From a virus: 64,000 nucleotides of DNA. Made by a program: the position numbers and the translations under genes. How positions within the stretch are numbered: position 1 is the stretch's first letter; each line of letters starts with the position of its first letter. Below are positions 1,902-64,000 of this stretch, in pieces. The notes beneath the pieces were generated by a model. The model did no database searches, was not told where the DNA came from, and was given only the letters and a program-made list of their open reading frames with translations. The stretch covers positions 32,432 through 96,431 of the IMG/VR virus record IMGVR_UViG_3300044922_000290; one strand, 5' to 3'.

Positions 1902-1902
1902 T

Positions 1903-3114: not shown

Positions 3115-3120
3115 GTTTAG

Positions 3121-5850: not shown

Positions 5851-5852
5851 TG

Positions 5853-6508: not shown

Positions 6509-6509
6509 G

Positions 6510-6908: not shown

Positions 6909-6919
6909 TTCTTCTATCT

Positions 6920-7279: not shown

Positions 7280-7550
7280 TTGATGTGGGTTTAAGGGTTT
7301 GTAGTTCGGTTAGAAGTTCTAAGTATAAATCATAGTTTACTAAAAAACTTGGCAATATTTCTATTCTTGCTGCTATATCCTCTATTGGTTTCATTTTACT
7401 TTTCAGCAATCGCTCTACTGCTTGCTTATAGGCTGTTGCGCCATCAATAAAACCGTGTGTATAGGTTATTTTATGTGGCGGGGTATATGTTGCTTCTTGA
7501 AACTCGCTTGACTTTTCAGCTTCTTGCTGCCATTCTTTCGGTAGTGTCAT
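7272..7550 (-). CDS. hypothetical protein
   Basis: 92-aa ORF containing GFIDGA. Confidence 0.55.
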   Translation of the reverse strand: MTLPKEWQQEAEKSSEFQEATYTPPHKITYTHGFIDGATAYKQAVERLLKSKMKPIEDIAARIEILPSFLVNYDLYLELLTELQTLKPTSND

Positions 7551-7560
7551 GGTGTTTGTT

Positions 7561-8001
7561 TTAAAGGGTTAGTTTTATCCAGTTATACTCAATCATTTTT
7601 TCTACTGATAAGCCCATAAATGGTAAGGCGTAACCTTTAGAGCGTAGGTAAGAGCTTACCCATTCACCTGTTCCTGCTCCAAAACCACAGTATCCGCCTT
7701 TTAAATATAAGCATGAAAGAGCACAATCTTTGCCTTGTTTTATTTCATCTTGTATTTTTAATTTATAATGATTATGATGACCTTCGTTGTATAAAACTTT
7801 TCTATATACAGCAATAGCATCCTTATGTGTTATTGATGAAAGGGGCTTTAATTCCAAATAATCAGTTTGTAACTTTTCTTTAGGGGTAAAATCATCAAAG
7901 CCAACATGTAGTTTAGGCTCGTTTGATTTTCTTATGCAAAGGACTTTCTGACCATAATACAGGGCAAAAAAACGGGCTTTGTTATCTAAGGTGTTCTCCA
8001 T
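7561..8001 (-). CDS. conserved Bacteroidota-phage hypothetical protein
   Basis: NKARFFALYYGQ...LELKPLSSIT...LRSKGYALPFMGLSVE. Confidence 0.65.
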   Translation of the reverse strand: MENTLDNKARFFALYYGQKVLCIRKSNEPKLHVGFDDFTPKEKLQTDYLELKPLSSITHKDAIAVYRKVLYNEGHHNHYKLKIQDEIKQGKDCALSCLYLKGGYCGFGAGTGEWVSSYLRSKGYALPFMGLSVEKMIEYNWIKLTL

Positions 8002-8004
8002 CTT

Positions 8005-8298
8005 TTAAAGGGTTATTCCGCAATCTTGCAGGGTTAAACGTATTCTAACCATAGCTGCTGGCGGTGGAGGATTTTTTGTTTCTTTAGTTTTATTGTATAT
8101 TTCTTTTAAAAGTTCAGCTAACCTCTCCTTATCGGAATTGGCTTTTGCTAACTGGGTTGTTAGGTCTGCTGTTTGTTGGGTAGCGTAGGTTACCATAGCC
8201 TTAATAGTTCCCTTATACACAAGACCTTGTTTGCTAATTATATTAGACACACCTTTGTGTTTAAAGTTTTCGTCTAATACTTCTTTTGCTGTTTTCAT
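8005..8298 (-). CDS. hypothetical protein
   Basis: 97-aa ORF. Confidence 0.55.
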   Translation of the reverse strand: MKTAKEVLDENFKHKGVSNIISKQGLVYKGTIKAMVTYATQQTADLTTQLAKANSDKERLAELLKEIYNKTKETKNPPPPAAMVRIRLTLQDCGITL

Positions 8299-8316
8299 TC
8301 TATTTGTTGTGTTTGG

Positions 8317-8613
8317 TTAAAGATTTTTTTCTATTGCTTTATCAATAATATCATTAAGTGTTTTTATCTGCTCTTTCAACTCCTCATTCTCCTTTTGATA
8401 CTTTTCAATAGTAAATATCTGGGCTTCGTTTACTTCTTTTAACAAGGTGTTTTCCTCTTTAAGGGCTTGGTAATTGTTGCAAGCGGTTACTATAAATTCA
8501 GCCGTTTCTGTTTCAAATGTTTCAATAATAAAATTATCATTAATATCACAAATGCTACATTCATTTTTTTCGCTTATTCTCAAAGGTAATTTTAGTGTGT
8601 GTTTATTCTCCAT
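8317..8613 (-). CDS. hypothetical coiled-coil protein
   Basis: AEFIVTACNNY followed by heptad repeats. Confidence 0.6.
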   Translation of the reverse strand: MENKHTLKLPLRISEKNECSICDINDNFIIETFETETAEFIVTACNNYQALKEENTLLKEVNEAQIFTIEKYQKENEELKEQIKTLNDIIDKAIEKNL

Positions 8614-8649
8614 TGTTAGTGTTGTTACTTGGTTTTAGATAGTTTGTGT

Positions 8650-8841
8650 TTAAAGTAATAAATATAATACTATTATTCCTAATAATATTACTAATATTAC
8701 TAATCTTTTAGCTTCTTTCTTATGTTTCAATAAGTATCTTTCAGCTTTATATCCTTGAGAATTTAAACTCATAGAATGAAACCATACTCCTCTTATTATA
8801 ATGTAACATATAATAGCTGTTATTATTAATAGTAATTTCAT
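8650..8841 (-). CDS. small membrane protein
   Basis: Likely start at MKLLLII; two TM segments. Confidence 0.5.
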   Translation of the reverse strand: MKLLLIITAIICYIIIRGVWFHSMSLNSQGYKAERYLLKHKKEAKRLVILVILLGIIVLYLLL

Positions 8842-9030
8842 AATTCTTTTATAAAAAACTTCTATAGTACATCTTATAGAAGTTATTGATAATTCCAGTT
8901 TCACATAAGGAATTATTAAACAGGTTAAAGAACTGTCAATATGCACCCTGTTTTAATGCTCAAAGATAAAACTGGGTTGGGTTAGTAAGAAATAAAATTC
9001 TTAGTGTTGCAGTTTTTCTTTGATTATTAG

Positions 9031-9104
9031 TCTCCCTGACAAGATTCTAACTTGTGACTTTCCCATTAGAAGTGGGATACTCTATACAGCTGAGTTACAG
9101 GGAG
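9031..9104 (-). tRNA. tRNA-Arg(TCT) with non-canonical U19/A56, CCA not encoded
   Basis: Minus strand CTCCCTG-TA-ACTC-AGCTGTATA-GAGT-A-TCCCA-CTTCTAA-TGGGA-AAGTC-ACAAG-TTAGAAT-CTTGT-CAGGGAG-A. All four stems pair perfectly; anticodon is TCT. Confidence 0.88.
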
Positions 9105-9118
9105 ATATATAATATTAC

Positions 9119-9682
9119 TTAAAGTATCTCTTTAATAAGAGAATCCAATTGTACTTCAATATCTTTTCCAAAGATAAGTGTTTTATTTGCTTTTATCAAA
9201 TCTAAATCGTATTCTGAAAGATTATTATCAGTTAAAGGATTAGTAATTTCTACTACTATTAATTCATCTTCACAATCATTATCTATACAATTAGCCAAAG
9301 CAAAATGTTCACTATCAAATCTTAAATCAGATACAATCACAAAAGAAGGTTTAGTTTCCCAAATATCTCCTGTACTTACTTGAAAATCATAATCTTTAAT
9401 TTTCTTTACAAGCTCTTCAGCAAAAACATTAGTACTAAATGCAGATTTTATAGCATCAGCAGTAGTTTCTAATAAATTTCTACCAACTTCTTTTTCATCT
9501 CTATTCTCCCAATTAAGAGGAGATTTTTTAGGAAAAAATGCTTTATCTACTATCTTCTTCAAAGGTTCAGCAAAAGATAATACTTTATTACTAATACCTT
9601 TTTCATCTAATTTCTTAGCCAACATAGCTGCTACTGTGGATTTACCTGAGCCATTTTTGCCTTTTAGTGCTATTATTTTCAT
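9119..9682 (-). CDS. deoxynucleoside monophosphate kinase (T4 gp1-like)
   Basis: P-loop GKNGSGKST, SFAEPLK, VSDLRFDSE. Confidence 0.8.
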   Translation of the reverse strand: MKIIALKGKNGSGKSTVAAMLAKKLDEKGISNKVLSFAEPLKKIVDKAFFPKKSPLNWENRDEKEVGRNLLETTADAIKSAFSTNVFAEELVKKIKDYDFQVSTGDIWETKPSFVIVSDLRFDSEHFALANCIDNDCEDELIVVEITNPLTDNNLSEYDLDLIKANKTLIFGKDIEVQLDSLIKEIL

Positions 9683-48470: not shown

Positions 48471-49434
48471 TGGTAAATATGTAAGCTCATCATATATAAT
48501 GAATGAGCTTTTCCGTGATTTTAAATCTTATGACTACCAACTACAAGTAGCTGATGTGGTACAATGGATTGGTGATGGCTTACGCAGGTTAAAACAACCA
48601 AGGTATTATGTAGATAAACTAACAGATGGTAACCTAGCTTTAGGACATTTACCTCTGATAGATATAGTTGATGGTAGAGGAGAATTACCTTATGACCTTA
48701 TTTCTATAACTCAAACAGCAAGAGCTGAAGAAAGAAGAAGTCCTTTTAATCCTCCTTACGTTTTATCAGGTATAGCTTACTATGATATAGAAACAGGTAC
48801 TGAATGTACTTTGGGAGATGGTTCAGACTTATGTAATCAGTTTACAAATTGTAACTGTCATATAGGTTCAGACCAAAGATGTCAAGGTTGTTGTAAAGAT
48901 TCACCTTGTACTACACTAACCTTACATCCAATGCGTTGGGCTACACATACATTCTTTAAAGGTTACCATAATTGTGACTTAGATGTACGGGCTAATTCTG
49001 ACCTTACTTATACAGTAAACAACAACTACATATTTACTTCTTTCAAAGAAGGTAAAGTATGTATGGCATACAGAGCTGTACCTTTAGATGAGAATGGATT
49101 ACCTTTAGTACCTGATACACAATCAGTAATAGAATACCTTAAATGGTTCTGTGCTGAAAAGATTGCTTTTAACTTATTTCTAACTGATAAATACACAGAA
49201 ACTAAATTAAGTTATTTCCAAGCTAACCATCAGTTATGGTTTAGAAAAGCACGTGCTGAAGCCAAAATACCTCAATCAATGGATGAATGGGAATCTTTAA
49301 AGAACTCTCGTGTTAAACTACTTCCAAGATTCTTTGAGCATAATTCATTCTTTGGTCACCTACAAACTCCTCAACAGATTTGGAACCAACCAAGAAGTGT
49401 TGCATTAAATAACCCTGTAAGTAGATTATTATAA
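48463..49434 (+). CDS. tail tubular/ring protein (P22 gp4-like position)
   Basis: ELPYDL...YTVNNNYIFTSFKEGKV.MAY.A.PLDENGLPLVPD. Confidence 0.75.
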   Translation: MYNGKYVSSSYIMNELFRDFKSYDYQLQVADVVQWIGDGLRRLKQPRYYVDKLTDGNLALGHLPLIDIVDGRGELPYDLISITQTARAEERRSPFNPPYVLSGIAYYDIETGTECTLGDGSDLCNQFTNCNCHIGSDQRCQGCCKDSPCTTLTLHPMRWATHTFFKGYHNCDLDVRANSDLTYTVNNNYIFTSFKEGKVCMAYRAVPLDENGLPLVPDTQSVIEYLKWFCAEKIAFNLFLTDKYTETKLSYFQANHQLWFRKARAEAKIPQSMDEWESLKNSRVKLLPRFFEHNSFFGHLQTPQQIWNQPRSVALNNPVSRLL

Positions 49435-52400
49435 TGGGAGAATACGTTAGAAATACATTTGACAAAGGATTAAATAAAGACTTAAGTAAGGGTAAAACAG
49501 CAAACAATACATTACTAGAAAACTTAGGTTTTAACATAGTAACTGAACTTGGGTTATCTACCTTAGCTTTAGAAACTCCAAAAGGAAACAAGTATTCTTT
49601 TGAGATACCTGATACATTTGCTATTTATAAGATTACCATACGTAGATTGCCTACAGAAGCATCAGGATATAATTTAGATATTAACCAACAAGGTGTAGGA
49701 ATAACTTTATCTACCGCAACTACAATAGATGAGTTATTCTCACAGATGCAATCTTTTGTACAAAATAGCTTTAAAATACAACTAGGCTTAGATTTTATCT
49801 ATGTAATAGGAACTACACAAAATCCTATTATATCTTCTACTATGTTTAATAGTGGAGGCCCACTTACACTAGCTTTACATATATCAGCTCAAACTGATTT
49901 AGCTATTGTAGGTTGGAAACAAATAAGAGATTCAATAGGTATATTAACTACAAAGAAAACTAATGTAGCTCCTTTTACAGATAGTGATGGTAACATATCA
50001 CAAATATGGAAACTAGACTATAATGAAGTTACAGATACAGTAGTTTCTCCTAATGGTACAGCACTAAATTGTGTAGACCATTTATACTATAATGACAGAT
50101 TAAATTTATCTTTACAACATGAAATATATAGGGAAATTGAGGGAAGGTATGAAAATACACAAGCTCAAAGATTCTATTGGACGGACAATTATAATTACCC
50201 AAGGGCATTTAATTTTGCATTGGAGAACAGCTTTACAACTCCTCCTGGGTTACTAGATTGGAAAGCAGATGTAGCATTATCTGTACCTATATTAGATAGT
50301 ATTATACCAAATACAGGTAATATTCCTGTAGGTAAAATAGGGTACTTTTACCAACTGCAATCTACTGATGGGGCATTATCCCCATATTCTGATATAAGTA
50401 ACCTTATAATGCTTACAGACAGTACATATGCAGAAAGTTCACAACAATATAAAGGAGCTATATCAGGTACTAACAGTACTAAGTCAGTAAGGTTTTATAT
50501 AAACAATATTGACCAAAGATACTCTATAATAAAAGTATGTTATGTAATATATCAAAATAACAACATACCAGAGTTTTATAAATTTAATGAGTTTAATATT
50601 ACTTCAAAGAAGATGTTCTTTGTACATTCAGGTAATGAATCAGATACAGCACTATCTTTAGAAGAAGTAATAAATCCTAACATACAGTTTGATACTTGTA
50701 AATCAATAACTTACAAATACAACAGGCTGTATGCTGCAAACACTACTACAAAAAACTATGCATTAGATTTTGATGCGAGAGTTTACAGATACTCAGGTAA
50801 GGCTCCATACAATTTTACAGATGTAGCTCCTCAAGTAGCTAAAGTATGGTCACAAGATGGTAGGTATAAACTTATAAATACCAGCTATAAGATATACAAT
50901 GTTAATGGTACAAACATTACACCTCAAGATATTTCTGATTCAGAAGACTTAGTAAATGCTTATAATGATGAATCAGGTACTGTATATGGACTATTCCCAA
51001 CAGGTGATGTATCTGTTTGGGATAATATCTATCAGTTTAAGTTTCAAGCAGATGGATTAACTTTAGGAGGCTCAGGGCCAAATGTAAGTTATAAGTTTGT
51101 AAAAGAAGATATGTCTTGTGATTGGGTAGTAACAGGAAGTTTAGACCACACCGAAGGTACAAATGGTTCAGGCCCTGTATATTTACCACGTGGTACAGAC
51201 TTTATTAATGTACCAGCAGGTAATAATACAAGTTCTGTAAACTTAGGTATAACAGGGCAAGATTATTTACAACAAGGTTTTGCTAACTTAAAATCAAGCT
51301 CACGTGAATCTATATACCTTACTTTACAAAGAGGTGAAACATATAGAGTTGGTATAAGGACTTTAAATAAGAAAGGAGAAACTTCTTTTGTAAATTGGAT
51401 GGGAGATATACGTACTCCTGAAGCTGTAGAATATAATACAGTAGACCCAAGTGCTAATCCTTTTAACTATAATCTGGCTTTAAATAATCTTACAGACAAT
51501 GTAAACTATTTACAGGTTCGTAGTATAGGGTTAGAATTTACAATAAGAACTGAGAATTTACCTGATGATATTACTGCATTTCAGATAGTTTATGTAGAGA
51601 GAACTGACGAGAATAAAACTAGGTTTGGTACAGGCTTACATTTACCTGTACTACAAATGAATGGCAGTGATGTCAACAGGCTAAAAGTTAATGGGGAGTT
51701 TACTGATGTTTATGTTACTGGAGTATATAAAAGTACAAGTAGTGCTGAAAACTGGACAGCTTATGACATACGAGAAGATTCTACTACAAAAGGTGGTGGT
51801 GGAGTATCTTTTATAAGAAGTAACTTTTGGCCTTTACAATTAGGGGCAAATCAACCCAACAGAATAGGATTAATTAAATCTCCTATGGCTGATGCACAAT
51901 TACCTCTTACAAGTGCTACATACATAAAACTACATGAAGGGTTTAGAGCCTATGAATCTCAATACTTTGCACAAAATCCAAGTAGTGGGGGGTTAGCTAT
52001 GTGCTATGGCTATTGGTTAAAATATAATGATTCTGCTTTAGGTATACCAACTACACAAATACGTAACTCAATAGACGCACGTCAGAATGTAGGTATAGAT
52101 TCTATTGTATTAAGAACTGTTGCTCCTACTGTAATGCAGTATGACTTTCATAATGTAGCATTAAGGAATGGTGATGGTACAGAAGGAAAACGTGGTTTAA
52201 TAGCAGGATTAGGACAAACATCAGAATTTATTGTTACAGGACAAATAACTAATACAGTACAATACAATACTACTTTTAATGGTAGTAATGTTACAGATGT
52301 AGATGCATTACCTTTTACAGCTTTTAATGATTCTGCGTTTGAACCAGGAACTGATGATGCTGATGATAACAGAGGTATACCAAAATCTAACTACAGGTTA

Positions 52401-53996
52401 GTACAATACTGTACTTTTAATATAGGACAGTATGGAGGCCCTTGGAGAGCTTCAAGATATAATAATGAGTATATAGCCTTTGGTAATTTTATACCTATCA
52501 GTGCTTCAAATCCTGCAAATCAAACATTTAGACAGTTTGGAGATACTTGGATAGGAATGTACTCAAGTGTATATTTTGCTTTTCCTTGGATGGAAGATCA
52601 TGGTATAGCTAGTAGAGGTGGAGTAGGTTCAGGGTTAGGTAATATATATGAAGAATCTAACAACTACAAACAAGCTTCAGTTATTTACCCTTGTGAAGCT
52701 CCTATTAATGGAGATATGAGGTATGGTAAATACTGGGCATCAGACCAAGTTAGACAACAGAATAACTTAGATGATTTTGCACCATTTCAGTTTGATGAGA
52801 ATTTATTTAACTTATCTTACGACCAAAAGAATAATGCAAAAAAGTTTGTGCCAGAACCTTTTAATACAAGTTTTGATGAAGAGCAACCTCATAGAGTATG
52901 GGTTTCACAAAACAAGTTAGATAGTGAAGTAATAGACTCTTGGAGAATATTCAGGGTAAATGATTATAAAGACTTAGAAGGTACATACGGACAGATAAAT
53001 AAGATAGTAAACTTTAAAGATAAACTTTTAGCTTATCAAGATAGAGCTGTAGGTTGGGTACAATCAGAAGAAAATTCTGCACTAAGAACTACTGACACAT
53101 TGGCAGCTCAAATAGGTACAGGTGACATACTGACAAGGTATCAATACATATCTATTGAATCAGGTTCTATACATCAACATTCTGTAGTTGTAGCTCCTGA
53201 TAGTGTACATTCATTTGATGCAAGGTTAAGAAAGTATATGATACTACGAGAAAACTTAGCTCCTGCTTCAGATGTAGAAGGATTATCAGCTTTCTTCAGA
53301 GAAAATGTATATGGGCCTATACTACAAACAGACCAAGTACTATTAGGTATAGGTATACATGGAGTATATGATACTAAATACAATAGATGTTTTATGACCT
53401 TCTTAAATAAGGTAGATGATGGTGCAGGTAAAATAGACAAGAAGTTTACAACAGTATATAATGATTTACTACAAGCATTTGAGAAACATGAACCTTTTAC
53501 ACCTAACTTATATTTAAATACAGGTAAAAGATTACTTTCAACTAACAATGCTTTAGATAAAGTATATGTACATTCACAAGGTAACTTCCTTGAGTATTAT
53601 GGTAGTTATTATCCAGCTTCTGTTACATTCATTTGTAAATTCCCTGATGAAACTAACTTACTTACAGCAAGGGTAGATACATTAGAGTTTTGGTCAGAAG
53701 TATTTAATAATGCTGGAGTAAACTTACCACTAGAATCAGTTACTTCAATAAAAATGGAGAATGATTATCAATCTACCTTTAATTCTTTGAACCCTTTAAC
53801 AGATTCTACGTTAAAGCGAAGAGAAAGAACTTGGAGAGTATCTCATATAAAAGATTACACTCCTCCTTATAACAATGTAAAGATAAAACCATATCTACGT
53901 GATAAGTATGTTAAAGTAACACTTACATTTAACAATCCTCAACATAGATTAGTTTTACATGATATTAATACACAAATTACTAAATCTTACCATTAA
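49434..53996 (+). CDS. tail stabilisation / muzzle protein (P22 gp10-like)
   Basis: NTFDKGLNKD, FYWTDNYNYPR, LQRGETYRVGI, DSWRIFRVNDYKDLEGTYGQINK...; 1520 aa. Confidence 0.8.
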   Translation: MGEYVRNTFDKGLNKDLSKGKTANNTLLENLGFNIVTELGLSTLALETPKGNKYSFEIPDTFAIYKITIRRLPTEASGYNLDINQQGVGITLSTATTIDELFSQMQSFVQNSFKIQLGLDFIYVIGTTQNPIISSTMFNSGGPLTLALHISAQTDLAIVGWKQIRDSIGILTTKKTNVAPFTDSDGNISQIWKLDYNEVTDTVVSPNGTALNCVDHLYYNDRLNLSLQHEIYREIEGRYENTQAQRFYWTDNYNYPRAFNFALENSFTTPPGLLDWKADVALSVPILDSIIPNTGNIPVGKIGYFYQLQSTDGALSPYSDISNLIMLTDSTYAESSQQYKGAISGTNSTKSVRFYINNIDQRYSIIKVCYVIYQNNNIPEFYKFNEFNITSKKMFFVHSGNESDTALSLEEVINPNIQFDTCKSITYKYNRLYAANTTTKNYALDFDARVYRYSGKAPYNFTDVAPQVAKVWSQDGRYKLINTSYKIYNVNGTNITPQDISDSEDLVNAYNDESGTVYGLFPTGDVSVWDNIYQFKFQADGLTLGGSGPNVSYKFVKEDMSCDWVVTGSLDHTEGTNGSGPVYLPRGTDFINVPAGNNTSSVNLGITGQDYLQQGFANLKSSSRESIYLTLQRGETYRVGIRTLNKKGETSFVNWMGDIRTPEAVEYNTVDPSANPFNYNLALNNLTDNVNYLQVRSIGLEFTIRTENLPDDITAFQIVYVERTDENKTRFGTGLHLPVLQMNGSDVNRLKVNGEFTDVYVTGVYKSTSSAENWTAYDIREDSTTKGGGGVSFIRSNFWPLQLGANQPNRIGLIKSPMADAQLPLTSATYIKLHEGFRAYESQYFAQNPSSGGLAMCYGYWLKYNDSALGIPTTQIRNSIDARQNVGIDSIVLRTVAPTVMQYDFHNVALRNGDGTEGKRGLIAGLGQTSEFIVTGQITNTVQYNTTFNGSNVTDVDALPFTAFNDSAFEPGTDDADDNRGIPKSNYRLVQYCTFNIGQYGGPWRASRYNNEYIAFGNFIPISASNPANQTFRQFGDTWIGMYSSVYFAFPWMEDHGIASRGGVGSGLGNIYEESNNYKQASVIYPCEAPINGDMRYGKYWASDQVRQQNNLDDFAPFQFDENLFNLSYDQKNNAKKFVPEPFNTSFDEEQPHRVWVSQNKLDSEVIDSWRIFRVNDYKDLEGTYGQINKIVNFKDKLLAYQDRAVGWVQSEENSALRTTDTLAAQIGTGDILTRYQYISIESGSIHQHSVVVAPDSVHSFDARLRKYMILRENLAPASDVEGLSAFFRENVYGPILQTDQVLLGIGIHGVYDTKYNRCFMTFLNKVDDGAGKIDKKFTTVYNDLLQAFEKHEPFTPNLYLNTGKRLLSTNNALDKVYVHSQGNFLEYYGSYYPASVTFICKFPDETNLLTARVDTLEFWSEVFNNAGVNLPLESVTSIKMENDYQSTFNSLNPLTDSTLKRRERTWRVSHIKDYTPPYNNVKIKPYLRDKYVKVTLTFNNPQHRLVLHDINTQITKSYH

Positions 53997-56900
53997 TGGG
54001 AAAGTATACTAAAATAAAAGCTGATGGTGGGCCAATAAAAGGTAAGAAGAAACCTGCTATTAAAGTTAGTGATCCTTTTGATCTTAATTTACATGCTTAT
54101 TTAGATAGCTCAAATTTACATAATGCTTACTTAGAGCAACTAAAATATAACCCGCCAGTAGCTCCAAAAGATTTAACTGCCCTTGATATTGATTATAAAA
54201 ATAGATTTAAAAATAAAACAAAAAATGAACAATTAATTTCGTTTAGTCCAAAAAAGGGTATGGTTAGCCCGTATAAATCTAAAAGCGAGTATTTAAAAGC
54301 AAATCCTGCGGAAGCTCCTTTAATAGATGCTTATGAAAATTTAAACTTTAAAGGAAAAACTCAAACAGGCTATTGGACAACTCCTGATTTATCTCACGAA
54401 AGTATAGCACCAATTGATGTTTATACAGGAGAAGTCTTAGTAAAAGGAAAACCAAGGCATGGGGGAAATCCCGTATATGCAGAACCTACTCAACCTTATG
54501 AGTATACTGGAGATATTAATGACGTATTAAAATATAGAAGTAGCCCCACTGTATATGGAATAAGTGCCTCCCCACACCAAGAAAAATTAAATATAAATTC
54601 TATACAATATAATCCTAAAGATACTAATCCTTACAATAAATATGTTGTAAATAGATACTTACCTACACCACAATCTCCAGTTAATCCTTTACCATACGAT
54701 GATATTCAGTTATATTCTGGACACCAAAACAGAGATAATCAAGGTCTATCTGTAGGTTATGTAATGGAAGATGGTAAGAGGAGAGATATAATGGCAGATG
54801 AATATAATGCAATTATGGGTAGCTCTGTACAAGGAGGTACTAAACTAGAAAATACTGATTATGCAATGGGTGGAATGATTAAACGTAAAGATGGCTCATA
54901 TTCTAAACGAGGATTGTGGGACAATATAAGGGCTAACAAAGGTTCAGGTAAAGCTCCTACTAAAGAGATGCTTAAACAAGAACGTAAAATTAAAGCTAAG
55001 TATGCAGATGGTGGCCCATTAGATAGAAATAAATTAAAAGAATACATTGACCTGTATGGATTTGGTTCAGGAGAAGATAGTGCTGGAGATGGTTATGATT
55101 TTATTTATAATAATCTAATAACCAAACATGGACTAGACCCAGATAATGCTGCTAAATATACTACAGCTATTTTATCTCCTTTAGAAATACAACCAAATAG
55201 TTTTACTCAAAGTACAGAAAATAATAATGCTGTTTATACAGCAGAAGATATGGATTTATATACAGGTGATACTGATATGGCAGAAATTAATAAATATAGA
55301 CCAACAAAACAATTAACTGCTAAAAAACCTTTTGGGTATAAAGAGAATTTTTCTAATGGTGAACAAGAATATGGTAAAGGCGGGCCAATTAATCCTTTAG
55401 AAGGAGATTTAATTTCTAAAGTTATTATGAACAGAAATAGAGATAAAGATTTTGTTCAAAGAGCTTATGCTGTAGGAGATTATCCTAATTCTAATATGTT
55501 TACTTCACCTGATCCTGATAACTTTGGTTCTAGAATGAGCCATAAAATGGAATATGGAGAAGATGATAAAGGACAAACATATATGTATCCTTCTGTAATG
55601 AATCCTAAAAATGAAGATATAAAAATTCCTAAACAGTATGCAGACTATATATCTTCTGTAGGTTATAAAAAAGCTACAGGAATGCCTTATGCAATGGGTG
55701 GTAGAATGAACCAAGCTCAACAGCTTAATCAAGGTAAAATGAGAGTTGGTAGTGGTGAAGGTAATGGGTTAAGAGAATATGCATCAGATTATGGTAATTT
55801 CCTATTAGATGGAATTACAGGTGTGGCGGAAGGAATTACAGGAGCTGAAATATATAACCCTAATTACAATACAAAGCTAGGTAAAATAGCAGGAGCTGTT
55901 AACAATCAATCAGGTAAAATGATTGGTAAATTTGCACCTATGGCTTTAAATGCTGTAGCACCTGGAGTAGGAACTGCTGTAGGAGTAGCAGGTAAAGCTA
56001 TTGGAACAGGGTTAAACGCTTCAAAAAATGAACAATCTAATGAACAATTAAATTTAGGTAATAATTCAATGCTACCTAACGTATTAGGTAATAATACGGA
56101 AGGTATAGCAGCAATGGAACAAATGGGAGCAAGTATGAAAATGGCACAAGGTGGCTTAATGCACATCAATGAAGGTGGTACACACGAACAAAATGCTTTA
56201 GGTGGTGTACCTATAGGCCCTAATGCTTTAGTAGAGCAGGGTGAAACTATAAATAATGACTTTGTATTTTCTGATAGGTTAAAACCTAAAGGAAGTAAAA
56301 AGACTTATGCACAACTATCTAAATCTGTAGATACTAAATACAGATTACGTCCTGATGATAAACTTTCTAAAGAAGCTAAACAGATGGATTTAGATAGGTT
56401 AGCTATGCAACAAGAAGCTCAGAAAGATGAAATGTCTACTAAGTATATGCAGAAAGCAATGGCTTGTGGTGGGAAGATAAAAGGCTTTGGTGGTTCATTT
56501 CAAGGGCCTATATCTCAATCTATGAATGTTACTAATGGTCAGAATACTTTGTTAGCTATGGGTGGAAATCTTCCTAACTATGATTATGGAGATGATGGAA
56601 ACATAAGAAGAAGTCCTTATAATAATATGGTTAATGCTGTAGATAATGGCATTAACAATGTTAATTACCGACCTAGCAATGATGTAATATTTAATGAACG
56701 TATGAAAAGAGAGGGTTTTAACCCTACTTTAGAAGATTATAATAAAGTTGTATTAAGGCAACAACAAGCAGCTTATGGTGGTAGCTTGATGAGTAACTTT
56801 ATGGAACAACCTCCTGTATATCAAAATCCTGCTAATCAATATGCTACGGGTGGTAATATGTATGGTAATGGTGGTGGGCCAATTGGGCCTTTAACACAGG

Positions 56901-58102
56901 ATGGACAATTTTTATCTACTTCTTTTTCAGGGCCTGATATGGATGAAACTTATCTTGATGAAAATTATTTAGATGATTTAAGAGCACAGCATTTTAAAAG
57001 TAATCCAAACATGGATCAAACTGTGTACTCAAATGACGATTTTCCTGTTAAAGATTATTCTTATTTAAGTAACCCTCAATATAATGATCCTAATTACAGT
57101 ATAGATGGTTATTTTAAGGATACAAATCGGAACCAATATTATAATACAAAAGTTTCACCAAGTTATAGCAGTGCTTTAAATAGACTAGAAACTAACCCAG
57201 CAGGGCAAAACTATTTAAAACAAATAGGAACTGTTAGCGGGTACACTAGAGATACTATATTTAATAACTTAGACCCCGATGTAATATTTAATAGAATAAT
57301 AGATAATGGCGTTGATTCAAATACTCCTATTAATATAGAATCTAAACCTTATTATACTCCTAATACTCAAGTTAAAGGTAGAGATGTACAGCCCTATAAT
57401 TCAGAAGAAAACAATTTGGCTAAACAAATGCAAGGTACAAGTAATCCTGCACAAAATGAATACCCAGAAGTTGGTAATACAGGATATTTAACTAACTTAG
57501 CAGGAAATTTAGTTAAAGCAGGTATGGTAGCTACAAGTAAACCTCCTATATATAACCCTTCAGTTAAGTTTGGCAGAATGAATGCTAACCCTGCTGAAAG
57601 ATTGGCTATGCAAGAAGGACGTAGAGAGATACAAGGTACTAAAGACATTATAAGGAACAATGCTACATCTTCAGGGCAATACCTTACTAATGCTTCACTT
57701 ATGGGTAGTAATGCAGCTAACAAGCTAGCAGGTACTATAGGTGGTATTAGACAACAATACGATACACAAAATGTAGGTATAGGTAATCAAGAAGCTCAAG
57801 TAAACCAACAAATAACTGCTGCTAATAACTTAGCTAAAGAAACCTTTAGAGATAACAGATTAAACCAATACAATAAGATATTAGATAGTGTTATAGGTGC
57901 TAACCAACAAAGGTTTGCAACTGATGTACATGCTAATAACTATCAGAATCAAGCTATTAGTATGTTAAAAACTAAAGACTTCCATGTAGGCAGAAAAGAT
58001 AAAAATGGAATGTTTGAAGTATTAGATATAAATGGTAATATTGTAGGAACACTAGACAACAATGGTGTTGCAAAAGACTTACAAGGTAATCTAATAAAAT
58101 AA
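53996..58102 (+). CDS. internal virion cargo protein with repeated [AG]-x-GG motifs (putative polyprotein)
   Basis: Follows the muzzle gene; conserved core GGTHEQNALGGVPIG..ALVEQGE....FVFSDRL; 12 GG motifs. Confidence 0.75.
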   Translation: MGKYTKIKADGGPIKGKKKPAIKVSDPFDLNLHAYLDSSNLHNAYLEQLKYNPPVAPKDLTALDIDYKNRFKNKTKNEQLISFSPKKGMVSPYKSKSEYLKANPAEAPLIDAYENLNFKGKTQTGYWTTPDLSHESIAPIDVYTGEVLVKGKPRHGGNPVYAEPTQPYEYTGDINDVLKYRSSPTVYGISASPHQEKLNINSIQYNPKDTNPYNKYVVNRYLPTPQSPVNPLPYDDIQLYSGHQNRDNQGLSVGYVMEDGKRRDIMADEYNAIMGSSVQGGTKLENTDYAMGGMIKRKDGSYSKRGLWDNIRANKGSGKAPTKEMLKQERKIKAKYADGGPLDRNKLKEYIDLYGFGSGEDSAGDGYDFIYNNLITKHGLDPDNAAKYTTAILSPLEIQPNSFTQSTENNNAVYTAEDMDLYTGDTDMAEINKYRPTKQLTAKKPFGYKENFSNGEQEYGKGGPINPLEGDLISKVIMNRNRDKDFVQRAYAVGDYPNSNMFTSPDPDNFGSRMSHKMEYGEDDKGQTYMYPSVMNPKNEDIKIPKQYADYISSVGYKKATGMPYAMGGRMNQAQQLNQGKMRVGSGEGNGLREYASDYGNFLLDGITGVAEGITGAEIYNPNYNTKLGKIAGAVNNQSGKMIGKFAPMALNAVAPGVGTAVGVAGKAIGTGLNASKNEQSNEQLNLGNNSMLPNVLGNNTEGIAAMEQMGASMKMAQGGLMHINEGGTHEQNALGGVPIGPNALVEQGETINNDFVFSDRLKPKGSKKTYAQLSKSVDTKYRLRPDDKLSKEAKQMDLDRLAMQQEAQKDEMSTKYMQKAMACGGKIKGFGGSFQGPISQSMNVTNGQNTLLAMGGNLPNYDYGDDGNIRRSPYNNMVNAVDNGINNVNYRPSNDVIFNERMKREGFNPTLEDYNKVVLRQQQAAYGGSLMSNFMEQPPVYQNPANQYATGGNMYGNGGGPIGPLTQDGQFLSTSFSGPDMDETYLDENYLDDLRAQHFKSNPNMDQTVYSNDDFPVKDYSYLSNPQYNDPNYSIDGYFKDTNRNQYYNTKVSPSYSSALNRLETNPAGQNYLKQIGTVSGYTRDTIFNNLDPDVIFNRIIDNGVDSNTPINIESKPYYTPNTQVKGRDVQPYNSEENNLAKQMQGTSNPAQNEYPEVGNTGYLTNLAGNLVKAGMVATSKPPIYNPSVKFGRMNANPAERLAMQEGRREIQGTKDIIRNNATSSGQYLTNASLMGSNAANKLAGTIGGIRQQYDTQNVGIGNQEAQVNQQITAANNLAKETFRDNRLNQYNKILDSVIGANQQRFATDVHANNYQNQAISMLKTKDFHVGRKDKNGMFEVLDINGNIVGTLDNNGVAKDLQGNLIK

Positions 58103-58104
58103 TT

Positions 58105-60450
58105 ATGGGCAGATTTATAGATATTACAGGTGCTCCTATAGCATCAGATTTTCAGGAAATGCCTTTGGATTTTATGTCAAAGGCATTAGACATTCAACAA
58201 AAGTCTAAGGATACTTTTGATACTGCACGAGAGAGTATGTTACCTAGTGAAGGGGGGTTAGCAAGTACTATGTTAAAAATGCCTGATGGTAAATTAATTT
58301 CTCTATCCCAATATGAAAAAGATAAATATGATAAATCTCTTGAAGATATAGCTAAAGTAGCAATTAATAATCCAATGGAGGCTAACAGAAGATTTGGAAT
58401 ATTTAAAAAACAAAGAGACAGTGATCCAGTTTTAAAATGGGCTAAAGAAGATTTTGCTTTAAAACCTACAGTAATTAATAATGAAAAAGCAGAAGATAAA
58501 GCAGGAACAGCTGTAAGATCTTACAGAGATAAAGAAGGTAAGGTAATACCCATTAATGTGGATGATATTATTTCAGGCAAAGTTTCAACTCCTCTTGAGT
58601 ATTATAATAGTATAGGTTATAGTGATTTTACAACTCCTACAAGAACTTTTATAAAGGACATTAAAGGTATTGAAGGTATGACTTCAAGTACCATAAAGCC
58701 CTACTTAGATGAGATAGCTGGTATAGGCTCAATGATAGCACAGGGTAAATCTGCTACTAAATTTGATAGGCAAACAATGGATAATCTACAAAAAGGTATA
58801 AATACCGCAGTAGATTACTTATTAAATAGTAAAAGTGCTGCCAGCCGATCTTTTAAAGCCATATATGGAATTATTGATGGTAATGGTAATCCACTGGTTG
58901 ATGAAGCAACTGCAAAACAACTTGCTACAAAATTTGTGTTAGAGCAAGCAGATGACTTTACTTATGATAACAAAAGTACTACTACTGATATGTCTTGGAG
59001 CCTTCCTTCAAAAGGAGATAGTGGAGATGGAAATAAAAATGGTAATGATGAAGAATCTGTAGAAATACCTGCTGGTTCAATCTATACTAAACAAGGAGAA
59101 AATCTTGTATTAAAAGCCATAGCAGGAAAAACTAGAGAAGACCTAGCTAAAGATGCTACTATGGCAGCATCTAAACTACTCGTTATTAAAAATCTTGATG
59201 CTACTAATCCAGATTTAGCAAGATTAGGTAAATCATTAGTAAATCCTAAAACAGGATTAATAGATTTTAATAAACTAACTCCTGCAATATTAGATGATAT
59301 AATAATAGCAGCTAATAAAAATAAAGACCCAAATATTACAACTGCTATTAATAGCTTAGCAGTAGCTAAACGTGGGTTTGATTTACTTCAAGACGCTGAT
59401 GTAGAATCAGATGTTATAGCTAGGCAACGTAGCGGGTTTACAGAAAAGAAAGCAAAAGAATATGAAGGTATTCGTAAAGATATAGAAGAAGAATTATTAA
59501 AGTATGCTACTGCCCCAAGTACTAGATTAATAATAACTGACAACGGTACTATTAAAGCTTTGATTAGTGGGGGAGCAGAAACAATGACAAAAAGTATAAT
59601 AAGAGTAGTTCCAGAAAATATACCTCTTTTTACAAAATATATAAAAGATATACAAGATAGTAATAGCGAGTTTTCTCAATATCGTAAAATTAAACAAGAG
59701 GAATACAACAAACGTACTAATCCTAATTATGAATACGCTCAAAACTGGACAGCTATAAAATGGGCAGCTTCTTCTGATGGGGAACATGAAAAGAAACAAT
59801 TAAATAATGCAGTGCATTCAAATATCACTAATTTAATTAGAGGAACAGGAGATAAAGAAAGTATAATAGTAAATGATGCGGGAGAAGCTGTAGATTTAAA
59901 AGAATACTACCCAGACCCAGAAGATGTAAATGTTATAGCACACGTAGATAACCCCGATGGTACAACTTCTGTTAAATTTAAACTTAAGAAATCTGCTCCT
60001 ACTCCAGAAGGAAAAATTAAAGTATCTGGGGAAGATGTATTTATATTAAAAACAGCTTCACCAATTGTTACTGAAGTATTGAAAAAATATAATAACCCAG
60101 TATATACTTTTGAGGGCAGAGCTAAAAGTACAGTGGCTGATTGGGAAAGAAATGTTTTACCTCAAACTAAGCGAGATGGAACTCCTTACATTAAAACAGT
60201 ATATCACGATAAAAACCCTATAAAAATACAGAATGTAGATGGAATTAATAATTACACTTTTGTCCCTAACAAAGAAGGTGCAAATGATTTTGTAGACTTT
60301 TATAATAAATACGTTGTATTTTTCCCTAATATAGAGAAAATATCTATAGATGCAAACTATGGTAAAGAGGATATAGGGGTAATTATAAGTACCTACGAAA
60401 TGTTAAAAGACCAACAAACTAAATTAGATAAACTTATTTTAGATAAATAA
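58105..60450 (+). CDS. internal virion (cargo/ejection) protein
   Basis: 781 aa; N-terminal MGRF...FQEMPLDFM..A...QQ; position between the cargo gene and the giant gene. Confidence 0.65.
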   Translation: MGRFIDITGAPIASDFQEMPLDFMSKALDIQQKSKDTFDTARESMLPSEGGLASTMLKMPDGKLISLSQYEKDKYDKSLEDIAKVAINNPMEANRRFGIFKKQRDSDPVLKWAKEDFALKPTVINNEKAEDKAGTAVRSYRDKEGKVIPINVDDIISGKVSTPLEYYNSIGYSDFTTPTRTFIKDIKGIEGMTSSTIKPYLDEIAGIGSMIAQGKSATKFDRQTMDNLQKGINTAVDYLLNSKSAASRSFKAIYGIIDGNGNPLVDEATAKQLATKFVLEQADDFTYDNKSTTTDMSWSLPSKGDSGDGNKNGNDEESVEIPAGSIYTKQGENLVLKAIAGKTREDLAKDATMAASKLLVIKNLDATNPDLARLGKSLVNPKTGLIDFNKLTPAILDDIIIAANKNKDPNITTAINSLAVAKRGFDLLQDADVESDVIARQRSGFTEKKAKEYEGIRKDIEEELLKYATAPSTRLIITDNGTIKALISGGAETMTKSIIRVVPENIPLFTKYIKDIQDSNSEFSQYRKIKQEEYNKRTNPNYEYAQNWTAIKWAASSDGEHEKKQLNNAVHSNITNLIRGTGDKESIIVNDAGEAVDLKEYYPDPEDVNVIAHVDNPDGTTSVKFKLKKSAPTPEGKIKVSGEDVFILKTASPIVTEVLKKYNNPVYTFEGRAKSTVADWERNVLPQTKRDGTPYIKTVYHDKNPIKIQNVDGINNYTFVPNKEGANDFVDFYNKYVVFFPNIEKISIDANYGKEDIGVIISTYEMLKDQQTKLDKLILDK

Positions 60451-63400
60451 TGGCAAAACAACCTAAAGAAGAACCAAATCCAATATTACAACATTTATTT
60501 AATACTCCAATAAAATACGGATTAGAAAACCCAGGATTTGATATTCCCACTTATAGAGATGTTTCAGATGATTTTGATACGTTTGAAGGAAGTAGAGTAG
60601 ACCCATTGGGGGGAGTAAATTTTGAAGCAGAAGATGATTGGCTAGCTAAAAGAGATGCTGAACAATCTTTGTATGATGCTTGGGGCAATGGCTTAATAAA
60701 AGCTGTAGGTAAGGCAGGTACTACTGCTGTAGAAGGTATAGGAGCATTAGCTACACTACCTTTTGGGCTTATAAAAGGAGTTTCTAGTGGTGATTGGAGT
60801 GGATTCTATGATAATGCTTTAGGCAATGCAATGGATGATATTAATGATTCATTGGCAGAAGCTTTTCCTAATTATAGTTCAAGAAGAGATTCTACATTTG
60901 ATGCTGACTTTTGGGCAGACCAATTCTTAGGTGGAGCAGGATATATGGCAGGTGCTATATTAGGTGGAGAAGGTATAGGGCTTATTGGTAAAGCAGTAGG
61001 AGGAGGATTAAAAGCAACTAGCCTATTACAATTAGGTAAGGGATCTAAAATAAAAGATATTGTTGGTTCAGGTTCTAAACTAGCTCAATTTGGAGCTAAG
61101 TTAAAAGACCCCACAAAACAATTAGCATATAGTTTAGCTACAGCTACTAGTGAAGCAGCAGTAGAAGCTAGAGATGTTAAGAATGTATTGTATGATGATT
61201 TATTTGCCAGAAGAGATGCAGGTGATCTTGCTTTACAAGGTAAGACTGATGCAGAACTTATGGATATGTCTAGAGCTGCTGGTAATGCAGCATTTGCATT
61301 TAACTTGCCTGTTATTGCTGCATCTAACTTTTTAACCTTTGGTAAAGCCTTAACATCAAAGTATGGAGCAGCAAGAAAAACTTTTGGTAATGTAGTAGGA
61401 GATATAGGAGAAACAGCTGTAAAAAAAGAATCAGCTTTACTTAGTGGATTAGGTAGACTTGGAGAAGGTGCTATATCTGAAGGTAGCCAAGAGTTAGCTC
61501 AGTTAGGTATTTCAGAAGGTTCTAAGAAGTACTATTTAGGACAATACAGTTCAAGTGCGCAGCACTTTAACAGTCTGTGGGGAAGTGTAATTGATGAAAC
61601 AGTAAGAAACTTAGGTACTAAAGAAGGTTTTGAGTCTATGTTTCTTGGTGCAATATTAGGTGGGCCAACTTCTCTATTAGTAGGACAAAAGCAAAGAGCA
61701 CAAGAAAAAAAGAATACTGCTGCTTACTCCGAGTTATTAAATAACCCAATGCTTCAAAGTCTAGTTTCTAACTTAAGTAGAAGAGGTGATAATATTACAC
61801 AAGTTGCAAATGCAAGTGCTCAACAAGATGGTGCAATAGTTGCTGGAGATAAATTTGGTTTTAAGAACTCAGAATATGATGTTCTAAAAGGACTAACAAA
61901 ACAAGCAGTAGAATTAGGCGGTGCAGATACTTTTATAGATAAACTAGAAGCACTTAAAGAATCAGACCTTGGAGAATTTAATAAAAAGTTTAGTAACCCT
62001 GAAGGTGAATTTGCAACTGTTGAAGAGCGTAATAAATCAATAGATGATGCAATACAAACAGTTAAAAGTGTAGCTGATGCTTATGATAATATTATAGTTA
62101 GTAGGCCAGAATTAAACCCTCTAGTAGCTGAAAAAACACCTGAACTTACTCAAGCTAAGAGACATATATTTGATGCAGTATTTGATGCTGTAACTAACTT
62201 TGAAGATATAGATAAAAGAGAAAATGATATAACTTCACAAATATTAGGACTTACAGCAGGTCAAAAAATTACTAATATAGGTATTATACCAAGTGAAGTA
62301 GGGCCTATTTTAAATCAGTATATAGAAAATACTCCAGGAGTAGATTTTGATACCTTTCGTAAATCAGATGCTTATAAAGAAAACTTTCAATCAAAGATTG
62401 ATGACTTTAAAAAAGTAAATCCTGCTAAAGCTTCTGAAGTTCAAACTCTTGTAGATGATTTAATTAAACTTTCTCTTCGCAGAGAAGAAATGATTAAACA
62501 GTATAATGAAGCTATAGAACAGCCTGAAAAAATACAGAAAGAAGCTGAAGCTGCTGCTCAAAAACTTCAAGAAAAAAGAGATAGATTAAAAGCAGAAGCT
62601 GATGCACAAGCTGCGGAAGCCTTAAAAACTGCAACTGAAGCTACTCCACAACCTACTGTAAATACTCCTCAGCCTGCACAAACTCCTGAACAAATGTTAG
62701 GAGGTACAACAGAAGATGGCTTACAAATGAGTGCTTCTGAAAATGAAAGTGAATTAGAAAAAGTAGCAATTGAAATAGCAACTTTACAAGAAGACCTTAA
62801 ATCTTATGAACCTGGTTCAGACATGTACAGTCTATATGAAGCAGCTTTACAAGAGGCAGAGGCAAAACAAAAAGCTTTAATTTCTAAAAAGAAAGAAACT
62901 GAAGAAGCTAATAAAAAGAAAGAAGGTACAGCAGAAAAACAAGCTGTAGCAACTAAAACTATATCTAGCGAAGATAAAGAACCTGTTGATGGAAATACTT
63001 TTACTAAATTAATATCTCCTAAAACAGAAGCTGCACAAAAGATAATTCAAACTACTCCTGTACAAGAATTAATAAAAGGCATCAAAGTTATTATAAAAGA
63101 ATATTCAAACTACAGAATAACAAGTAAGTATTTATTAGAGGGATCTCCCATAGTTATAAATGGAAGAAGGGTAGATTCTTATACAGTAGATAAAAATATA
63201 GATGGGTCTATAGGCGGAATAGATGTAAAATTTGCAGACACTTCTACTCTTGATTATACAACAGCTGAAGCCCAAAAAGATTTAAATAAAACTTATATTG
63301 TAAGTAAAGAAGGAGGTATTTATGAAGTAGGTACTGAAACTCCTGTATTAGTACAAAAAGCAACTCAAAAAGAAAATGTTAGTTATGTAGGAAGACCTAT

Positions 63401-64000
63401 AAGTATTACATTTACTTATAATGGTGTAGAATTAGGCTACTTACCTAATGCTGATAAATTTAGAACTAAAGATGGTAGAGGTTGGAATGATTTAAATACT
63501 GACGAAAAATTAAATTTATTTAAAGCAAGAAAGGGTACTCTTACTTTACAGGATATTCAAGCCTTAAATATACAGCAACAAGAGCTTGCTAAAATACAAC
63601 AACAACTAGAAAAACAGCCTTTTGGAGAGTACTCTTTACAAGACTTTCCATTCCTATCTATTACTCCAAGTATGGGGGAATTTGATATAGCTTCTAAAGA
63701 TACAGAGCCTTTATTAGCTACTAAAATGCCTATAGCTAGGTCAGGAGGTAACCCCCTTATATATGACCAAAATAAAGGTACATTTGTATATTCAAATGAT
63801 ACTCCCACAGCTTTAGATGCTGTTAAAACTATACCAGAAGGTATACAACAAAAACCAGGTGAGAAAAATAAAGTTGGTAATAGATACTTAGTATTACTTG
63901 AAAATGGTAATTGGGCTGTACTTGAACATAAAGAATTAACTTTAGCTGAATTTGAAACCGTATTTAAAGAACTTCTTGACCTACAAAAAAGAATTAAAGA
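60450..64000 (+). CDS. giant virion protein (crAss-like virion RNA polymerase-associated locus), runs off the window end
   Basis: ATG overlaps the upstream TAA; translation MAKQPKEEP...KRDAEQ...WGNGLIKAVGKAGTT..., Gly-rich hydrophobic helices; no stop seen in the parts read, and the ORF track omits it, consistent with an ORF that has no stop before the window end. Confidence 0.75.
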   Translation, partial: MAKQPKEEPNPILQHLFNTPIKYGLENPGFDIPTYRDVSDDFDTFEGSRVDPLGGVNFEAEDDWLAKRDAEQSLYDAWGNGLIKAVGKAGTTAVEGIGALATLPFGLIKGVSSGDWSGFYDNALGNAMDDINDSLAEAFPNYSSRRDSTFDADFWADQFLGGAGYMAGAILGGEGIGLIGKAVGGGLKATSLLQLGKGSKIKDIVGSGSKLAQFGAKLKDPTKQLAYSLATATSEAAVEARDVKNVLYDDLFARRDAGDLALQGKTDAELMDMSRAAGNAAFAFNLPVIAASNFLTFGKALTSKYGAARKTFGNVVGDIGETAVKKESALLSGLGRLGEGAISEGSQELAQLGISEGSKKYYLGQYSSSAQHFNSLWGSVIDETVRNLGTKEGFESMFLGAILGGPTSLLVGQKQRAQEKKNTAAYSELLNNPMLQSLVSNLSRRGDNITQVANASAQQDGAIVAGDKFGFKNSEYDVLKGLTKQAVELGGADTFIDKLEALKESDLGEFNKKFSNPEGEFATVEERNKSIDDAIQTVKSVADAYDNIIVSRPELNPLVAEKTPELTQAKRHIFDAVFDAVTNFEDIDKRENDITSQILGLTAGQKITNIGIIPSEVGPILNQYIENTPGVDFDTFRKSDAYKENFQSKIDDFKKVNPAKASEVQTLVDDLIKLSLRREEMIKQYNEAIEQPEKIQKEAEAAAQKLQEKRDRLKAEADAQAAEALKTATEATPQPTVNTPQPAQTPEQMLGGTTEDGLQMSASENESELEKVAIEIATLQEDLKSYEPGSDMYSLYEAALQEAEAKQKALISKKKETEEANKKKEGTAEKQAVATKTISSEDKEPVDGNTFTKLISPKTEAAQKIIQTTPVQELIKGIKVIIKEYSNYRITSKYLLEGSPIVINGRRVDSYTVDKNIDGSIGGIDVKFADTSTLDYTTAEAQKDLNKTYIVSKEGGIYEVGTETPVLVQKATQKENVSYVGRPISITFTYNGVELGYLPNADKFRTKDGRGWNDLNTDEKLNLFKARKGTLTLQDIQALNIQQQELAKIQQQLEKQPFGEYSLQDFPFLSITPSMGEFDIASKDTEPLLATKMPIARSGGNPLIYDQNKGTFVYSNDTPTALDAVKTIPEGIQQKPGEKNKVGNRYLVLLENGNWAVLEHKELTLAEFETVFKELLDLQKRIK

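Follow-up and report, generated by a model that had tools for sequence, protein, structure and literature searches.

A conserved Gly-Gly motif at module boundaries in the mosaic cargo protein of a distant crAss-like phage

The cargo protein gene and its modules

The DNA analysed here (the window) is a stretch of 64,000 nucleotides (nt) with about 32% G+C, positions 32,432 to 96,431 of IMG/VR virus record IMGVR_UViG_3300044922_000290, of which it forms the right-hand part; the whole viral record is 96,431 bp long and 95% complete. Our subject is a plus-strand open reading frame (ORF) at 53996..58102, which encodes a protein of 1368 amino acids (aa), and a short motif, [AG]-x-Gly-Gly, that recurs along this protein and that we refer to as the seam. 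A family match, the fold of a predicted structure and the position of the gene identify the ORF product as crassvirus cargo protein C1. The crAss-like phage that carries it is uncultured and distant from those known, its large terminase sharing only about 35% identity with theirs. Residues 718-816 match PF25725 (CARG1) with an E value of 2.7e-21 and 76.5 bits, against a curated cut-off of 27. An AlphaFold model of residues 700-880, built with 100 diverse relatives, had a mean predicted local distance difference test score (pLDDT) of 74, rising above 90 across the CARG1 domain, and it matched gp45 of phicrAss001 (7QOG_M) with a Foldseek E value of 4e-6, a VIA-align Z score of 12.9 and a root-mean-square deviation of 2.4 Å over 104 residues; gp45 was also the sole match in a sequence search of the PDB. 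The gene lies directly 3' of the muzzle protein gene in the tail and cargo block, in the same order as gp44 and gp45 of phicrAss001. In that phage residues 425-552 of gp45 sit on the portal wing in twelve copies and a helix (residues 214-245) lines the tail barrel, and the authors propose that the protein is ejected from N- to C-terminus (PMC10172136). An earlier note on the window, made from the sequence alone, had called the protein packaged, ejected cargo; the homology to gp45 bears this out, presence in the virion, portal binding and ejection being known for phicrAss001 alone (PMC10172136). The genes at the locus are the following.

49434..53996, plus strand: muzzle protein gene, the upstream neighbour, which sets the identity of the locus (PF25731 crAss_MUZ, E 4.8e-104); one loose motif only.
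53996..58102, plus strand: cargo protein 1 (C1) gene, 1368 aa (PF25725); its start overlaps the stop of the muzzle gene by 1 nt.
58105..60450, plus strand: the following ORF (781 aa), which occupies the cargo protein 2 position; it lacks the motif, and comparison with gp46 of phicrAss001 showed no detectable similarity.

The muzzle gene, C1, the 781-aa ORF and the giant polymerase-associated ORF that follows them are separated by 1-nt overlaps or a 2-nt gap (window positions 53996, 58102-58105 and 60450), a spacing that suggests coupled translation of the block. The giant ORF (60450-64000) runs out of the window at its end and resumes at the start of the record (genome positions 3-9317, L020, about 30 kb before the start of the window), so the record is a permuted circle.

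The motif divides C1 into a series of segments. All 12 copies listed in the earlier note were found at the residues given there (8, 289, 336, 459, 565, 716, 822, 829, 853, 925, 949 and 956). A thirteenth, at residue 733, falls within the conserved CARG1 core and is a feature of the domain rather than a joint. The segments between motifs are 7 to 281 aa long, and a BLAST comparison of C1 with itself revealed no internal repeats, so they are mutually unrelated; this agrees with the description given before, of unrelated segments of 7 to about 280 aa. The individual parts that had been picked out, a basic 47-aa peptide, a 106-aa unit, a Gly/Ala-rich hydrophobic stretch and a conserved core (aa 721-826), are likewise all present. 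The parts of C1 are as follows.

54017..54031, plus strand: seam 1 (aa 8-12), closing a basic N-terminal leader of 12 aa, which orthologues conserve.
54032..54874, plus strand: module aa 13-293, with a sub-boundary at the Gly-Gly of aa 156-157, closed by seam 2 (aa 289-293, nt 54860-54874).
54875..55015, plus strand: basic 47-aa module, aa 294-340, charge +9, closed by seam 3 (nt 55001-55015).
55016..55384, plus strand: 123-aa module, aa 341-463, closed by seam 4 (nt 55370-55384); precisely absent from the closest relative, the near-identical phage L002 (369-bp indel).
55385..55702, plus strand: 106-aa module, aa 464-569, closed by seam 5 (nt 55688-55702); shared at 65-99% identity by 14 viral loci, some of them in non-crAss phages.
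55703..56155, plus strand: Gly/Ala/Asn-rich module, aa 570-720, closed by seam 6 (nt 56141-56155).
56156..56473, plus strand: CARG1 portal-binding domain, aa 721-826; the first strand follows directly on seam 6, and seam 7 (nt 56459-56473) is where the long helix terminates.
56474..56875, plus strand: linker region of low model confidence, aa 827-960, with five seams (nt 56480-56494, 56552-56566, 56768-56782, 56840-56854 and 56861-56875).
56876..58099, plus strand: seamless C-terminal region of 408 aa, collinear in orthologues.

The sub-boundary in the second of these parts is supported by several orthologues in which homology begins at aa 161, and the Gly/Ala-rich stretch (aa 646-671) is weakly hydrophobic, with a maximum hydropathy of 1.35. 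When each inter-motif segment was searched against Pfam (E <= 1) and PHROGs (E <= 0.1), nothing was found besides CARG1. Comparison in the ESM Atlas placed the 106-aa unit with unnamed viral clusters (0.80) and the basic unit with DUF6321 (0.82), both below a meaningful level, and an AlphaFold prediction of the 106-aa unit from 11 sequences reached a pLDDT of 45 and was unusable. The suggestion that the modules are effectors, for example anti-defence proteins, is therefore not borne out for any module of the present C1. Such a function is plausible for the family, a few members of which carry an ART-PolyVal domain (E 2e-14), an ADPrib_exo_Tox domain (E 4.5e-7), a borderline YkuD (L,D-transpeptidase) domain or a partial SET domain.

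Motif series, domain edges and exchange of modules

The abundance of the motif in C1 was compared with that in 5000 shuffles that preserved the composition of the protein. Its 13 [AG]xGG matches compare with 2.11 ± 1.44 expected, a count reached by none of the 5000 shuffles. For the motif preceded by [YMKLA] there were 12 matches against 0.62 expected, and for [YM]AxGG six against 0.08. Plain Gly-Gly was only mildly enriched (18 against 13), so that the unusual feature is the context of the Gly-Gly. Scanning every ORF of 100 aa or more across the 96,431-bp genome showed the strict form [YMF]AxGG in C1 alone, in six copies; the loose form was present 12 times in C1 and no more than once in any other ORF. 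The muzzle protein, the ORF in the next cargo position and the giant polymerase-associated ORFs each have none or one, and the earlier observation that the neighbouring large proteins lack such a series thus holds. The enrichment extends to relatives of C1. In 112 relatives obtained by a word-indexed search there were 695 matches to [AG]xGG, compared with 223 expected from composition, and the consensus seam is [Tyr/Met/Phe]-Ala-x-Gly-Gly-x-[Ile/Met/Leu]. An exhaustive HMMER search with C1 residues 690-1000 gave 1561 cluster representatives (E <= 0.001), and the best 145 of these 1561 held 494 motifs against 190 expected. The motif is specific to the C1 class of proteins.

The motif also has a characteristic position with respect to the one domain that can be recognised. 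In 98 relatives, drawn from clusters at 50% identity or less, it was located relative to the CARG1 core: 77% have a motif no more than 20 aa upstream of the core, none has one within the domain, about one per protein lies at +80 to +140 (the first 60 residues past the long helix of the domain) and none is found beyond +320. The structural model of C1 agrees with this pattern, in that confidence rises and the first strand starts immediately past the Gly-Gly of residues 719-720, the long helix halts at the motif at 822-826, and the motif-rich stretch after the helix is predicted with low confidence. Together the placement in relatives and the model mark the motif as an indicator of domain edges. 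Motifs are also common close to the ends of the proteins: in 47 of 254 relatives one lies 10-14 residues from the N-terminus, and in 45 of the 254 only 5-9 residues remain after the last Gly-Gly, as a C-terminal tail. The peptides at these ends are basic.

The earlier note had proposed that, if the protein is modular, orthologues should gain or lose modules exactly at motif boundaries, and this comparison gave a positive result. BLAST of C1 against its relatives returned a patchwork of matches. In two orthologues (P0010 and P0006) the seam at residue 293 is joined straight to the sequence that follows residue 569, three modules being missing; another retains a five-residue remnant between two seams, another passes from the basic unit directly to the 106-aa unit, and still others retain the basic module alone or have different modules after the residue-293 seam. 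In an all-against-all BLAST of the 112 relatives, 15% of the internal ends of high-scoring segment pairs (HSPs) fell within 3 aa of a motif compared with 3.6% for random positions, a figure that is descriptive because HSP ends are not independent events. The ends peaked on the second Gly and the starts three residues ahead of the first.

At the nucleotide level, L002 is identical to window positions 54962-55018 and then again from 55385 onward, so that a 369-bp cassette is precisely missing; the indel is bounded by two copies of GGNGGNCCA, a microhomology, in otherwise identical DNA. A 15-nt identical direct repeat encodes two YAMGG seams (window 54859-54882 and 55687-55710), and the block between them (aa 294-568) is exactly what P0010 and P0006 are without. 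The first Gly of the seam is encoded by GGT in 12 of 13 cases, compared with 47% elsewhere (72% against 55% in related loci). This bias is weak, and avoidance of GGAGG or of runs of G would explain it equally well.

Two of the units also occur outside this arrangement. The basic 47-aa unit recurs at 80-90% identity in dozens of large phage proteins, where it may be N-terminal, internal or C-terminal, and the 106-aa unit is found in proteins encoded between the portal and capsid genes of phages that are not crAss-like. No stand-alone gene was found for the 106-aa unit, which on its own was represented only by three short proteins on contigs under 1.8 kb that are probably fragments. Its near-total restriction to larger proteins is consistent with a unit that depends on a carrier. 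In P0122 a single seam is all that separates it from the CARG1 domain, with the cassettes in another order. At 70-75% identity it is present in a protein of 579-894 aa in L006, L007, L008, L009:9806-11545 and L010:9548-12232. The gene for this protein directly follows an ORF of 856 aa, itself preceded by one of 664 aa, and lies ahead of smaller ORFs; this block is unannotated, and we took it for the head-gene block of phages without a muzzle gene. The presence of the unit there suggests that the cassette moves between kinds of virion-internal proteins.

Two related phages have an interrupted C1 gene, with one ORF on either side of an inserted gene (L002:8186-12574 and L003:8645-13236). The insert in L002 is a GIY-YIG homing endonuclease gene (PF01541, E 8.5e-8) that lands within the basic 47-aa unit; that in L003, a Cys-rich ORF of 214 aa, matches no Pfam family. 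With the inserts the two halves have new coding ends: the upstream half has a short acidic tail, the downstream half a basic leader that closes with a Gly-Gly motif. Such end caps are recurrent. The acidic tail Gln-Gly-Tyr-x-Ile/Val-Glu-Tyr/Phe-Ile ends many cargo proteins (L011:14981-19925, L014:12413-16972, L003:11318-12300 and others), and the ORF after a protein with this tail opens with a basic Met-Lys/Ala-Val/Ile-Lys/Arg-Ile strand. Other recurring cargo ends are Gly-Gly followed by Trp-Leu-Asp-Lys-Tyr, and Gly-Gly followed by Thr-Ile-Lys-Lys-Arg-Ser-Leu-Lys-Lys, mirrored by N-termini that start with Met-Lys-Arg-Ser-Leu-Lys-Lys-Tyr. These caps might pair the halves non-covalently; a complex prediction of the acidic C-terminal cap with the basic N-terminal leader of the split C1 halves scored 0.13 against a mark of 0.32 and is evidence neither way.

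Joint, cleavage site, docking handle or scar

The earlier note had taken the motif for a cleavage or capsid-loading signal. The only direct view of a seam in a virion is that of gp45, where the resolved segment 425-552 opens with the motif Ala-Phe-Gly-Gly (A425) followed by Trp-Leu, and the chain is ordered and continuous into the domain in mature virions; at least that site is therefore uncut. The 179 residues between the tail-bound and the portal-bound segments of gp45 were modelled by the authors as one bridging chain (PMC10172136), and this bridge holds five motifs; no cleavage is reported in the crAss001 papers. Among the proteins of the 95%-complete genome, no adenain (C5), Ulp (C48) or C39 peptidase was found at E <= 1, nor was any MPTase-PolyVal (PF18818), S78, ClpP or S77 family detectable, host proteases being outside this search. 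An HExxH motif is present at residue 752 of the portion of the giant ORF that is read from the record start; neither this region as a peptidase nor a candidate ART region had a Pfam match, even at E <= 10. The sequence around the Gly-Gly also differs from known sites: at P4 there is Ala in 76% and Gly in 23% of all instances, compared with the Met, Leu or Ile of adenain sites, and Pro follows the Gly-Gly at three of the 12 sites in C1 and in 9% of all instances. Cleavage at the seams is thus not supported; cutting may yet take place after ejection.

The reading that we favour, and to which we would give an even chance, is that the seam is a joint that stays uncut and doubles as a point of recombination. 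By homology with gp45, the CARG1 domain (aa 721-826) would anchor twelve copies of C1 to the inner portal face, with the N-terminal 720 residues facing the tail lumen, and the protein would leave the virion N-terminus first, ahead of the DNA. C1 is an evolutionary mosaic in which cassettes of 7 to about 280 residues are connected by one conserved seam peptide. At each seam the Gly-Gly would end the preceding helix or start the next strand, so that the cassettes could fold independently along a flexible string, suited to being packed and then threaded through the portal and the tail channel. The GGNGGN codons of the seam would at the same time offer in-frame microhomology for the insertion, deletion and exchange of cassettes between phages. 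The identity and fold of C1, its mosaic structure, the breakpoints at seams and the motifs that bracket the CARG1 domain are observed; that the seam acts as a hinge, and that sites other than the one in phicrAss001 are left uncut, we infer.

Several observations weigh against this reading. A pure hinge does not explain why an aromatic residue or Met is conserved before the Ala and a hydrophobic residue two positions past the Gly-Gly, nor would it need the tandem seams that occur 3-5 residues apart. In 40% of relatives a motif lies 10-25 residues from an end, beside a short basic leader or tail, an arrangement that resembles removable targeting peptides. Taken together, the conserved flanking hydrophobics, the tandem seams and the terminal basic peptides are more readily reconciled with a signal for processing or targeting than with a passive hinge. 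The uncut state has been seen for one seam in one phage only, and gpH of phage lambda, which has the same short motif, is cleaved nearby. As to recombination, the GGNGG microhomology amounts to just 6-9 nt and the GGT bias is slight.

A doubtful, though serious, alternative is that the seam is a protease site, the string being cut at Gly-Gly into modules during maturation or, more likely, after ejection by a candidate endopeptidase of the phage or the host, with the terminal basic peptides removed in the same way. The seam resembles the sites of morphogenetic proteases in being short and linear and in having fixed positions to either side of the Gly-Gly; it can occur in tandem, and it is found near both termini, where it delimits basic end peptides. 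The enzymes that relatives carry (the ART-PolyVal, YkuD and ADPrib_exo_Tox domains noted above) would act in different compartments, lambda gpH is cleaved in the Gly-rich region that holds the same motif, and the HExxH motif of the giant ORF would offer a possible agent. The split C1 gene of L002, in which the endonuclease gene separates two polypeptides, is tolerated, so covalent continuity is not essential. Against this stand the ordered, continuous motif at 425-428 of gp45 in mature virions, the absence of the searched peptidase families from the genome and of Pfam support from the HExxH region, the Ala at P4, the Pro that can follow the Gly-Gly, and the silence of the crAss001 papers on cleavage. 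A broader form of the same idea, which we consider rather doubtful, would make the seam a true processing code, by which crAss-like phages and some other Bacteroidota phages load arbitrary cassettes as one portal-anchored string that a Gly-Gly endopeptidase of phage or host origin would cut after ejection. If so, basic peptides, enzymes and inhibitors would be released into the periplasm and cytoplasm, and tailed phages would have a virion polyprotein system comparable to the processing of adenovirus core proteins.

It is unlikely that the seam is instead a docking or loading handle, which would bind a virion surface (portal wing, tail barrel or muzzle) or a host factor and so load the cassettes or ratchet the chain out. 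The ordered segments of gp45 do start at a motif (425-552) or four residues past one (214-245, after the motif at 207-210), most relatives keep a motif just before the portal-binding domain, the motif is confined to C1-type proteins, and the lack of a stand-alone 106-aa gene is what dependence on a carrier would give. The spacing from motif to first strand, however, ranges from 5 to 17 residues, a variation that speaks against any fixed contact; at natural N-termini the basic module has no motif; and the binding partner is hypothetical. The other cargo ORFs of the phage are without the motif, so it is not a general loading signal, and the proposal of a capsid-loading signal in the earlier note is not supported. 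We consider it very unlikely that the seam is only a scar of recombination with no function in the protein, homogenised because in-frame crossovers survive only in tolerant linkers at shared GGNGG DNA. The exact 369-bp indel between GGNGGNCCA repeats, the 15-nt repeat at the two YAMGG seams that flank the block missing from P0010 and P0006, and the GGT bias at the first Gly would all be expected of a scar. Against a mere scar, the x position and the codons for Ala and Tyr vary freely while the residues are kept, hydrophobic residues are conserved on both sides, and the motif persists at equivalent domain edges in relatives below 50% identity and in phicrAss001.

Relation to known systems

In the human gut Crassvirales rank with the most abundant phages, and they are also widespread in the environment. 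The analysis shows C1 to be a carrier of cassettes with a fixed joint; the joints are where phages exchange cassettes, and the portal-binding domain is the constant anchor. For the thousands of uncharacterised cargo proteins (1561 cluster representatives for CARG1) the seam offers a simple rule by which they can be parsed into units for expression and testing, each by itself. Cut seams would mean that tailed phages have a polyprotein system of a new kind; uncut seams would be a natural design rule for proteins that are threaded through a channel of 3-4 nm.

Cargo that is directed to the capsid by a short recurring motif and then processed by a protease is exemplified by the internal proteins of T4, with gp21, and by the inner-body proteins of phiKZ, and the proteases of adenovirus and African swine fever virus (ASFV), adenain and pS273R, are specific for Gly-Gly at P2-P1. 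C1 resembles these systems in its recurring short motif and in the short terminal peptides that end in it. In T4, phiKZ, adenovirus and ASFV there is an identified virion protease with proven cut sites, whereas here no protease family was found, P4 differs and one site is seen uncut.

The tape measure protein of lambda, gpH, is a tail-lumen protein that leaves first, and the earlier statement that [FY]AxGG recurs near its C-terminus is correct: FATGG is at residues 732-736 and YATGG at 777-781 (Gly-Gly at 735 and 780). Cleavage of gpH falls within its Gly-rich region, with neither the position nor the agent known (PMC12617516). Its order of elements, a Gly/Ala-rich hydrophobic stretch, FATGG, Gly-Gly, a V-x-x-G-E ... 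F-V-F element and YATGG, is like that of C1 by resemblance only. Comparison with gpH residues 670-853 gave a BLAST E value of 0.5, and hhalign aligned an 8-residue motif only, with a probability of 0.2. In gpH there are two motifs rather than a series, and no mosaic is known at them.

The closest counterpart is gp45 of Bacteroides phage phicrAss001, which is culturable on Bacteroides intestinalis (PDB 7QOG, 7QOI, 7QOJ, 7QOL and 8CKB; Bayfield et al. 2023, PMC10172136). This protein of 90.8 kDa shares with C1 the CARG1 domain, both by hidden Markov model and by fold, the gene position after the muzzle gene, a Gly/Ala-rich hydrophobic stretch upstream of the domain, and the seam motif at about seven places, where the Gly-Gly lies at residues 210, 264, 333, 374, 392, 428 and 563. 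The two proteins can be aligned only over the domain of about 100 aa, with 34% identity. C1 is 526 residues longer, about 300 of these before the domain, and has basic 47-aa, 123-aa and 106-aa units, none of which is in gp45. The description of gp45 makes no mention of the motif or of a mosaic structure (PMC10172136).

In its architecture C1 resembles the polyvalent proteins known from phages and from conjugative elements. These are large, are packaged or transferred, and combine many unrelated domains in shifting ways; their processing into parts, with zincin MPTase domains as agents, has been proposed (Iyer, Burroughs, Anand, de Souza and Aravind 2017, PMC5512222). C1 likewise consists of many unrelated segments, its architecture varies among relatives, and some of these carry ART-PolyVal and other ART domains. 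It differs in that CARG1 is the only domain recognised in it, none being enzymatic, that no MPTase (PF18818) was found in the present genome, and that no junction motif is described for the polyvalent proteins (PMC5512222). The present C1 thus adds a new, very mosaic member to a known family and shares the behaviour of polyvalent proteins (PMC5512222). What is new is that the seam is conserved and that cassettes are exchanged at it, and we found no paper that describes either.

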